From: an archaeon GW2011_AR15
Lineage (GTDB): Archaea; Nanobdellota; Nanobdellia; Woesearchaeales; GW2011-AR15
NCBI GenBank assembly: GCA_000830295.1
Contig: CP010425.1
Coordinates: 672,001-736,000, forward strand
Length of the DNA stretch: 64,000 bases
Direction: 5' to 3'
The notes beneath the pieces are model-generated. The model saw only the letters and a list, made by a program, of their open reading frames with translations. It had not been told where the DNA came from and searched no databases. Shown piece by piece: positions 7,458 through 8,969 of this stretch (positions are counted from its first letter, which is position 1; each line of letters starts with the position of its first letter). The translations under genes were made by a program, and so were the position numbers.

Positions 7458-8070
7458 GGCTTTCCTTTATCCTGCTGAAAACCTCTTCCCTGCTTCCCGA
7501 GGCATCTATTGTTTTCCAGCTGCCCCTGAACTCAGGCATAGCTGAAATTTCCTTGTATCCTTCAGCTATCTCCCTGAAGAAATCCACCCCCTTTGACTCG
7601 AACTTGTCCCCGTCTTTGTCAAATGTTCTCTTTAACCCTGACGCAGGGTCAAGCTCAAAGAACAGGATTAAATCCGGCAGGAAACCTTCAATTGCAGTCC
7701 TGTTTATTTCCATGACTTTTTTTATTCCCAGTTTTCTTGCGCTGCCCTGGTAAGCAAGGCTGCTTACTACAGACCTGTCTGATATGATAATTCCGCCTTT
7801 TTTCAGCACAGGAGAAACAACAGCCCTCAATGACTGGGCTCTTGATGCAGCATAGAGATAAGCTTCTGTCTCAGCTGCCATTATCTCTTTGTAAGAGGTT
7901 CCCTGGACAATCTTCCTTATTGACTCTGAAATTTCTGTGCCTCCGGGCTCCCTCGTCAAAAGGATTTCCCTGTCAGGATACAGCCCTTTTAGGTATTTGT
8001 GGAGCTTGGCAGCCTGTGTAGTCTTTCCAGTGCCTACAACGCCCTCCAGAACAATGTAAATTCCTTTCAT
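7438..8070 (-). CDS. tmk: Thymidylate (dTMP) kinase
   Basis: EGVVGTGKTTQ P-loop, TREPGGT, DRSVVSSLAYQG. Confidence 0.95.
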   Translation of the reverse strand: MKGIYIVLEGVVGTGKTTQAAKLHKYLKGLYPDREILLTREPGGTEISESIRKIVQGTSYKEIMAAETEAYLYAASRAQSLRAVVSPVLKKGGIIISDRSVVSSLAYQGSARKLGIKKVMEINRTAIEGFLPDLILFFELDPASGLKRTFDKDGDKFESKGVDFFREIAEGYKEISAMPEFRGSWKTIDASGSREEVFSRIKESLRKILH

Positions 8071-8164
8071 CAGCGTAGAGATTATATCCTAGTTTAAAAA
8101 AATTATGACATTACTATAAAAAGCAATAACTTATTTAAATGAACTAATTCTCCACAAATTCTAT

Positions 8165-8236
8165 GGCGATAGTCGTATAATGGTAGTATATAGGACTGTG
8201 GATCCTGTGGAGGGAGTCCGATTCTCCCCTATCGCC
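8165..8236 (+). tRNA. tRNA-His(GUG), encoded G-1, C73 discriminator, no encoded CCA
   Basis: Acceptor GCGATAG/CTATCGC, anticodon arm TAGGA-CTGTGGA-TCCTG, T arm GGGAG-TCCGATT-CTCCC; TATA box at about 8134. Confidence 0.92.
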
Positions 8237-8409
8237 CTTTCTAATTAGTTAAGTCCGCTTGAACGAAGTGAAACGGACAGCGTGCCAACCGAGCTACCAG
8301 TTGGTCTGCTTCTCCCCTATCGCCCTTTTTTTAAGTGGGATTTCAGCGAAGCTGAATGTCGCACCTGTTTGGATTCTAACCTTACTAAAGGTTAGTCTCC
8401 TATCGCCCT
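8222..8409 (+). repeat. Three copies of the tRNA-His 3' end separating two hairpin-rich ~85-bp units
   Basis: TTCTCCCCTATCGCCCTTT exact at 8222-8240 and 8310-8328; CCTATCGCCCT again at 8399-8409; periods 88 and 83. Confidence 0.85.
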
Positions 8410-8417
8410 CAACCTTT

Positions 8418-8969
8418 CTACTTATTTACTAACTTAGTTTTCTCTGCAACATACTTGAAGAAAGAGGATACATGCTTCAGCACGTTGTATTCCTGGTTTA
8501 TGTCCGGATCAAGCACAGGGCAGAACAGGGCAGTGTACACAAGCCCGCTCATAAGGTGGAGCAGTGTAAAAGGTATCTGGCCGCTAAGGCTTGCCATGAA
8601 CGGCATGTTGAACAGCATGCTTGACATGACAGGGCCTGTAATGAAATCAAATACCAGCACGCTTAAGAGAGTGAACCCGAAATAATGGAGAAGATTGATA
8701 TCTTTTATTTTTCTGATCAGCAGCCCTGCAAGCAGCGCAACAAATGAATAGACGAGGCTGGTTACAATTGTCCAGATTCCAACACTCCCGGTAATCAGGT
8801 CAAAGCTTGCCATTGTTACAAACACGAACAAAATGGATTTCCATATGCTTTCCACTCGGGCAGTAGGAAGCATAACTCCCAAAATAGGGTCATTGTTAGG
8901 GAAAATCCTCATAAACCTGAATATGTTTACTGCAATTACAGTGCTGAGGAATTTCCAGATTTTTTTCAT
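8418..8969 (-). CDS. ECF transporter S-component-like membrane protein
   Basis: FRFMRIFPNNDPI motif, about 5-6 TM segments, QIPFTLLH. Confidence 0.7.
   Translation of the reverse strand: MKKIWKFLSTVIAVNIFRFMRIFPNNDPILGVMLPTARVESIWKSILFVFVTMASFDLITGSVGIWTIVTSLVYSFVALLAGLLIRKIKDINLLHYFGFTLLSVLVFDFITGPVMSSMLFNMPFMASLSGQIPFTLLHLMSGLVYTALFCPVLDPDINQEYNVLKHVSSFFKYVAEKTKLVNK

Follow-up and report, generated by a model that had tools for sequence, protein, structure and literature searches.

Two small hairpin units between duplicated tRNA-His gene ends point to a candidate family of target-duplicating elements in the archaeon GW2011_AR15

Several classes of small repeat and mobile element come close to the DNA described here, a set of hairpin-forming units that stand beside duplicated gene ends in the genome of archaeon GW2011_AR15 (G000 below). 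MITEs and REP/BIME sequences are, like these units, tens to about 100 nt long, non-coding, hairpin-forming and multi-copy; they also share copy numbers that vary between close relatives and are tolerated in or near genes, RNA genes included. The Rickettsia palindromic elements show the same likenesses and the same differences. MITEs have terminal inverted repeats, whereas a repeat search of the units returned internal hairpins only, and the target duplications of all these groups are fixed at 2-10 bp, whereas those of the units vary from 11 to 68 nt. Unlike palindromic elements, the units are found at gene ends with their first hairpin toward the gene, and no matching transposase was found in G000. 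IS200/IS605-derived (HUH) elements insert without a duplication, again unlike the units.

Other elements are closer in their choice of site. Casposons insert at tRNA gene 3' ends and duplicate about 14-15 bp of target, and the units resemble them in that new copies appear to be added on the 'leader' side, as in a CRISPR array; they differ in being about 70 nt long and geneless, in having no inverted terminal repeats and in their duplications of 11-68 nt. Dictyostelium TRE and yeast Ty3 are reverse-transcriptase elements that use tRNA flanks as safe sites, with fixed orientation and variable target duplications, and they land tens of bases from the gene, whereas the units insert at the very gene end. 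Six-frame searches of the 96.8%-complete G000 gave 0 matches each for the HUH transposase family Y1_Tnp (PF01797), for Cas1 (PF01867) and for the reverse transcriptase family RVT_1, which gives no support to the HUH enzyme that a first-pass annotation of the locus had envisaged. Integrated plasmids and viruses of the pNOB8 and SSV type, as well as a kilobase insertion with tRNA repeats at tRNA-Thr of Caldiarchaeum described in PMC3293823, likewise have a direct repeat of part of a tRNA on either side of the insert; the pNOB8 and SSV type is kilobases long, encodes a recombinase and uses a fixed att site, whereas the units are about 70 nt long and their repeat is always local sequence. Archaeal BHB introns, including the 59/60 introns of ARMAN-2 (cut in vitro, PMC3239211) and the transposed introns of Thermoproteales, are alike in the DPANN setting of many interrupted tRNAs and in homologous inserts at different tRNAs. 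Here the duplicated sequence starts at tRNA nt 58-60 and members of the unit family occur inside 59/60 and 37/38 introns; the His unit, however, follows a whole gene whose 3' part is duplicated, whereas known introns have no duplication, and no splice motif is evident at tRNA-His. Judged from these comparisons, the units seem to behave like small palindromic selfish elements, yet lack the defining features of a MITE, an HUH element, a casposon, an integrase scar and a BHB intron. A full-text literature search that covered neither subscription journals nor bioRxiv supplements returned no description of such units, and the family, common in this lineage, appears undescribed. It would be a new kind of mobile DNA in DPANN archaea, with target duplications that fit no known transposase class.

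The window, meaning the whole stretch of 64,000 nt analysed here (contig CP010425.1, 672,001 to 736,000), holds a single tRNA gene, tRNA-His(GTG), called by ARAGORN at 8166-8237 and matched by the Rfam tRNA model RF00005 over 8166-8236 (54.4 bits). We place the gene at 8165-8236 of the plus strand, on which all parts of this locus lie, with the encoded G-1 at 8165 and the discriminator C73 at 8236. Nothing but this tRNA passes Rfam gathering thresholds between 7500 and 9500, and the two units match no Rfam family at that level. A TATA-like box read from the sequence (TTATTTAAAT, 8131-8140) stands about 25-34 nt 5' of the gene; given the usual archaeal promoter spacing, the predicted start would fall at or next to G-1 and the tRNA would be leaderless. 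The T-loop (8217-8223) reads TCCGATT, with C rather than the nearly universal U at position 55; C55 recurs in tRNA-His of two relatives (G001 and G019), and TTCGA is found in G003 and in the second His gene of G000. That second tRNA-His(GTG), at genome positions 240574-240645 (-) outside the window, has a canonical T-loop and no unit, and its 3' flank begins with TCAAC.

Behind the gene in the window its 3' end recurs, so that it is present three times, as the first-pass annotation had noticed. Copy 1 (8222-8240) lies within the working gene and comprises tRNA nt 59-73 plus CTTT. Unit 1 (69 nt, 8241-8309) separates it from copy 2 (8310-8328), an exact 19-nt echo, and unit 2 (8329-8395), which opens with the remainder of the T run, separates copy 2 from copy 3 (8396-8409, TCTCCTATCGCCCT), a decayed echo with 1 mismatch in 14. 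The repeat search lists the same arrangement as a three-copy family (8225-8238, 8313-8326 and 8396-8409) and as a 25-nt pair, 8216-8240 and 8304-8328, of 92% identity (2 mismatches). The 14-mer CTCCCCTATCGCCC occurs exactly at 8224 and 8312 and with 2 mismatches at 8395; 0.21 matches are expected from shuffles, and 3 were reached in 1/100 of them. Unit 1 consists of an AT-rich spacer (8241-8252), hairpin 1 (8253-8278, GTCCG-CTTGA-ACGAAGT-GAAA-CGGAC), the linker AGCGTG, hairpin 2 (8284-8305, arms GCCAAC/GTTGGT) and a tail CTGC. Unit 2 has its hairpin 1 at 8335-8364 (inner TTCAGC-GAA-GCTGAA at 8342-8356), a linker CTGTTT (8365-8370) and hairpin 2 at 8376-8395, with arms CTAACCTT/AAGGTTAG. TTAAGT is present in both units, and all four hairpins are where they had been placed at first sight.

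Copy 3 is followed by TCAAC, the flank found 3' of the second tRNA-His gene of G000, and is for this reason probably the original gene end. We favour, with a probability of roughly two in three, a functional tRNA-His gene behind which a small, non-autonomous, target-duplicating non-coding element inserted twice in succession. Each insertion would duplicate the adjoining target, here the part that begins in the T-loop and stops a few bases beyond the gene; the duplication would keep the tRNA whole, and an echo of the gene end would stay behind the element. Since copies 1 and 2 are identical and copy 3 is decayed and borders the original TCAAC flank, we infer that unit 2, the outer one, is older and landed first, and that unit 1, gene-proximal and with a perfect 19-nt echo, is younger and landed later at the live gene end; that the duplications arose at insertion belongs to the same inference. 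The locus, which also keeps its synteny with the tmk gene in relatives, is covered over at least 7800-8551 by contigs of three runs (X6, X8 and X1, of which X1 may be the source sample) with zero differences. The arrangement is for that reason not an assembly artefact, a possibility the first-pass annotation had raised. A contig of a further run, X9, covers 7800-8240 and continues with TTTTAAGTGGG, the sequence that follows copy 2, giving a form without unit 1; the evidence for this one-unit form is the last 11 letters of a single assembled contig, two other X9 contigs carry the two-unit form, and it could be ancestral or equally a deletion between the repeats. An exact scan for the tRNA-His 3' half in metagenome contigs, a collection that may leave out the same and near genomes, returned 0 stretches.

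The same arrangement is widespread in G000, a single contig of 1,157,790 bases (42.5% G+C) in which ARAGORN, with introns allowed, called the 39 tRNA genes used here. The survey of tRNA 3' flanks that the first-pass annotation recommended bore out its expectation of similar units elsewhere, in this genome and in relatives. Under a strict test, the tRNA's own 3' 11-mer (at most 1 mismatch) recurs within 150 nt downstream in 15/39 genes, as against 8/1480 for foreign tRNA ends and 0/39 on the upstream side; a lenient test (12-mer, 2 mismatches) raises the number with a downstream echo to 19/39. Echoes begin at tRNA nt 57-59 in long units and at nt 60-62 in a short one-hairpin type, and end at nt 72-80, mostly 73-75. 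Fourteen long units, the two of tRNA-His among them, align as one family with a common layout: an AT- or T-rich spacer, hairpin 1, a linker that is often CCTGTTT, and hairpin 2 (YCAAN...NTTGR). A T run stands directly 3' of the tRNA in many units, and tandem pairs are found behind tRNA-Thr(CGU) and tRNA-Thr(UGU) as well as tRNA-His, in keeping with the proposal of units added in series. In practical terms, the family accounts for the 'extra 3' ends' that tRNA finders and annotators see in these genomes. These counts, together with the run contigs and the survey of family copies, refute chance, replication slippage or mis-assembly, to which we give a practically negligible probability: the two units differ in sequence and belong to a family with dozens of members, and only the fold of unit 1, no better than that of its shuffles, fits such an origin. 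The units share a fold but little sequence, as the earlier argument against simple slippage had it, and slippage of that kind is excluded.

Both His units lie directly after the gene end and each is followed by a copy of that end, and on layout plus partial matches they are counted as divergent members of the family. Fold energy supports unit 2 (z = -3.1, 0/200 shuffles as stable) and above all its second hairpin (z = -4.2, 0/200); unit 1 is at chance level on energy alone (z = -1.26, 22/200), so that the comparison with shuffles proposed earlier came out in favour of one unit and against the other. Support for the fold of unit 1 comes from comparison with relatives. All bases that do not vary in the family are present in its hairpin 1, and the stem shows a double compensatory change (CC/GG): among 20 hairpin-1 sequences it is the sole one with C-G at both variable pairs. 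It shares an identical 18-nt stretch with the tRNA-Asn unit, and over its linker and hairpin 2 (25-28 nt) it is 96% identical to units behind tRNA-Ser, tRNA-Thr and another site in G003, G006 and G026, of which G026 belongs to a different family. In unit 2, the stretch GAATGTCGCACCTGTTT matches the second unit behind tRNA-Thr(CGT), GAATGTCGCAC-TGTTT is common to unit 2 and the second tRNA-Thr(CGU) unit, close relatives occur in G003 and G012, and hairpin 1 is of another type, common to the second Thr(CGT) unit and to Ser(GCT). The covariance model that the first-pass annotation had called for was built on hairpin 2 with the His units left out (model R1); hairpin 2 does covary, as set out below, and the His units match it weakly or not at all (unit 2 at 11.2 bits, E=0.85; unit 1 unmatched). 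A whole-unit HMM built without the His units finds unit 1 as the top match in the window at E=0.02, and gives unit 2 E=1.6. The other R1 matches in the window (40786, 32148, 20295 and 22572) lie within coding sequence, have no flanking repeats and are chance. The spacer of unit 1 resembles the native flank over 16 nt, by a rough estimate about as much as expected by chance, and this similarity was set aside.

Units of the same family extend well beyond tRNA 3' ends, and the description 'tRNA-targeting' proved too narrow. A search of G000 with a hairpin-2 profile located units after a protein-gene stop codon at 660.5 kb (42-nt flanking repeat), at another protein-gene 3' end at 863.8 kb (58 nt) and at 168.7 kb (24 nt); antisense units precede three protein-gene starts (28.9 kb, 635.4 kb and 1152.7 kb) with repeats of 24-27 nt that include the start codon. 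Further antisense units stand in front of tRNA genes, and another lies inside the 37/38 intron of tRNA-Gly(CCC). The RNase P RNA of G000 (561703-562045, 98.7 bits) has a P3 expanded by about 50-90 nt with unit-like sequence, whereas P3 is short and free of it in the 17 other RNase P RNAs of the family; the expansion is confined to G000, which makes P3, by sequence comparison, another landing site, and the idea that the units derive from it was dropped. The P3 of a different Woesearchaeote (L125) consists of a hairpin 2 of the unit-1 type. Relatives show the same classes of site, with repeats of 11-68 nt (24-68 nt at protein-gene 3' ends), and a second tRNA-His with a unit was found in G005. 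Units without an evident duplication are those in 37/38 and 59/60 tRNA introns and in P3 of RNase P RNA. By-eye sorting, in which several rows were ambiguous, puts hairpin 1 toward the intact gene wherever a class could be assigned, with sense units solely after genes and antisense units in leaders and introns. Oligo-T runs of at least 5 occur on the sense strand in 10/19 units and on the antisense strand in 0/19. As sense oligo-T would be expected to stop archaeal transcription, selection against premature termination may lie behind this orientation rule. In a record titled as a Methanosarcinales MAG (L122), a sense unit of the unit-1 type, with no oligo-T, forms the 5' leader of tRNA-Leu(CAG).

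Copy number differs sharply between close relatives. Across 20 genomes of the family, R1 gives 18 matches in G000, then 11, 8, 7, 5, 3, 3, 3, 3, 1, 1 and 1, and zero in 8 genomes; within the genus the counts are 18, 11, 8, 1, 1 and 0, and across the order 8/151 sampled genomes have matches. The syntenic tRNA-His of the congener G003, which likewise follows tmk, has no unit. Unit gains appear recent. In G004 the syntenic tRNA-His (L008, about 2120-2240), not called by ARAGORN, apparently is interrupted twice, by an intron at 37/38 and by another in the T-arm; the latter contains CTGATGA...TGA, resembling a box C/D or K-turn motif, and is flanked by GCGAG/GCGAA.

The hairpins themselves bear marks of selection. 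As a whole-unit alignment was not in structural register, and RNAalifold found no structure on it, hairpins 1 and 2 were aligned separately. In 17 hairpin-2 regions, His units left out, 92% of cells are paired, a level reached by 0/500 shuffles; pair 21-37 is UA in 7, CG in 5 and GC in 5, with none unpaired, and pair 17-41 (UG 9, UA 5, CG 2) would be mismatched on the opposite strand. The commonest hairpin-1 type was compared in 20 sequences (G000, G003, G004, G005, G007 and G016): the outer stem is 99% paired, 3/5 pairs change on both sides (pair 4-31 is GC 9, UA 6, CG 2, GU 2, AU 1), and the bases G-CTTGA...GA...AAC are invariant in 20/20. Caps differ between members, so the C-GAA-G triloop singled out earlier from the two His units is not a trait of the family. 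Covariation together with strand-specific wobble pairs indicates that the fold matters on the tRNA-sense strand, where the hairpins would act single-stranded, as RNA or as single-stranded DNA during movement. The strong covariation and an internal loop (G-CUUGA...GA-AAC) that does not vary suggest that a role as RNA or in protein binding is under selection, and that the units are more than junk. Comparison of hairpin 1 by eye with a K-turn, a hammerhead and a C/D box gave no adequate fit.

Such constraint would also be expected if the units were functional RNA modules, co-transcribed trailers, leaders or terminators that aid termination or tRNA processing, perhaps with L7Ae or a similar protein on the G-A-rich internal loop and with the echo under selection to pair with the tRNA 5' strand or to serve as a second 3' end. 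Covariation of both hairpins, wobble pairs specific to the tRNA-sense strand, the invariant loop, the T run directly 3' of many tRNAs, oligo-T in the sense strand only and an orientation rule that fits an effect on transcription all agree with it. Against this, a module with a standing function would hardly range in copy number from 18 down to 0 inside a single family (18, 1 and 0 even among congeners), or be missing from the orthologous tRNA-His of G003; nor would one expect the same units at the ends of protein genes, in RNase P RNA and, antisense, within introns, or outer echoes that decay, as copy 3 at tRNA-His and the Ser and Ile echoes do. We consider this account unlikely as a replacement for insertion, and the two are compatible, since a terminator could be part of a selfish element. 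The array of small RNAs processed at tRNA-like ends, which the first-pass annotation offered as an alternative, is conceivable; a search for RNA runs that contain the locus returned none.

Archaeal integrated elements are classically bordered by direct repeats of the 3' part of a tRNA (PMC3293823), and many att sites, like the echo, begin in the T-loop. The first-pass annotation named such duplicated ends as att-site signatures and offered excision scars as one option; on this reading, elements with an att site in tRNA-His would have integrated and been lost repeatedly. It fares poorly: behind every unit stands a copy of that unit's neighbour, at more than 20 different tRNAs and several protein genes, so no single att site fits, and the units are 55-90 nt long (about 70 nt at tRNA-His), contain no gene remnant and are homologous between sites. 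A trans-acting integrase found no backing either. Tyrosine recombinases (PF00589) in G000 amount to one full-length match and one weak partial one, at genome positions 1153920 and 119548; the former lies about 470 kb from the tRNA-His locus (at about 680 kb), and none stands beside it. From its sequence, as we read it, we take the full-length protein to be of the Xer type. The unit found 1.2 kb away from this Xer-like gene is simply an insertion at the start of nop10. Integrase scars are in our view largely refuted and very improbable.

The preferred reading, successive insertion of a target-duplicating element, has its own difficulties. The multi-copy family, its place beside duplicated local sequence at many kinds of site, its anatomy and its unequal copy number in close relatives are direct observations; what would move it is less apparent. 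No mobilising enzyme turned up among the families searched in G000, where the TnpB-type match was sub-threshold only, and this counts against a mobile element, as do the lack of terminal inverted repeats and of fixed ends (spacer 0-19 nt, tail 0-5 nt), the strong covariation with its invariant loop, the weak profile scores of the two His units and a unit 1 no more stable than its shuffles. Duplications end near functional boundaries, mostly tRNA nt 73 +0-4, within about 6 nt of stop codons, and at start codons; these also weigh against a blind DNA cut, which does not predict them. The insertion model likewise does not account for the strong preference for tRNA 3' ends over other sites. As duplications of 11-68 nt with ragged ends are unlike those of known transposase classes, staggered cutting with fill-in, or template switching, would be the nearest mechanisms for the duplication. 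The idea that reverse transcription halting at m1A58 sets the nt 58/59 boundary was discarded, given no RVT_1 in G000 and echoes that start at about nt 51 in one unit of G026 and about nt 53 in one of G006.

Part of the family is found inside tRNA introns. In five tRNAs (L082 and L083 in G004, L093 and L095 in G009, L096 in G012), T-loop introns at 59/60 of about 110 nt consist of an antisense unit and a conserved piece ending in GTGAAAG; the intron end UGAA can pair with T-loop UUCA, giving a BHB-like junction. Among 37 units at tRNA 3' ends (of which 2-3 are probably spurious), 12, including those of tRNA-Leu(TAG), tRNA-Ala(TGC) and tRNA-Thr(GGU) in G000, have four bases, before AAU and the T-stem copy, that fully pair T-loop nt 54-57, as against 2, 0, 0, 0, 1 and 0 at six control offsets, and the geometry of this pairing is that of the 59/60 intron junction in the five intron-bearing tRNAs. 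At tRNA-His itself, unit 1 pairs at 2/4 positions and unit 2 has no T-loop part.

These matches could mean that the echo is the true 3' exon of a 59/60 BHB intron, and that the splicing endonuclease removes the gene-proximal copy and the unit from read-through transcripts. The antisense units in 59/60 introns with their UUCA/UGAA helix, the family members in 37/38 introns, the 12/37 pairings and the ARMAN-2 precedent (PMC3239211) favour such a view. It is nonetheless improbable: pairing at tRNA-His is poor or missing, a whole tRNA with a T run precedes the unit, which makes splicing superfluous, hairpin 2 is closed by the same UGRG bases, so that the T-loop match may be a by-product, and the protein-gene sites are left unaccounted for.

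Tentatively, and with a good deal more doubt than belief, the link can be turned around within the insertion model: non-canonical tRNA introns of archaea might have arrived by way of the mini-elements. The first product of an insertion that duplicates its target would be a whole tRNA with unit and echo, which does no harm. With an echo that starts within the T-loop and a unit tail able to pair nt 54-57, splicing of read-through transcripts would be possible from the outset. A 59/60 or 37/38 intron would result once the gene-proximal copy was lost or an insertion fell inside the gene, and the tRNA-His array would be the first stage, caught twice. A bolder variant, suggested by echoes that mostly stop at nt 73 +0-4, at start codons and near stop codons, is that echoes are copied from transcript ends, which would require an RNA-templated step without a known reverse transcriptase. 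There is no settled account of where the non-canonical introns, split tRNAs and otherwise disrupted tRNA genes of archaea come from; for Asgard archaea, one study reports no general route and leaves the mode of arrival open (10.64898/2026.10.13.758758). Here one unit family occurs in four states: behind whole tRNAs with a duplicated end, before them, in 37/38 and 59/60 introns, and in RNase P RNA. These states, with gains that appear recent, make intron arrival testable within one lineage.

A few further features of the tRNA genes of G000 may merit attention. The number of genes that ARAGORN calls rises from 19 to 39 once introns are allowed, and even then several isoacceptors are lacking, so that interrupted or atypical tRNAs are numerous in G000 (tRNA counts in Nanobdellota are covered by 10.64898/2026.05.13.725050). 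After the unit and echo of tRNA-Pro(CGG), at 769590-769660, lies a partial second tRNA-Pro that runs from the anticodon arm to the 3' end and differs in its acceptor strand. The short unit type, 40-60 nt long (for example 1078720-1078768 and 770875-770934), has one hairpin with a GA-rich cap; its 5' arm is an antisense copy and its 3' arm the sense echo of the tRNA acceptor strand, so that together they form a minihelix.
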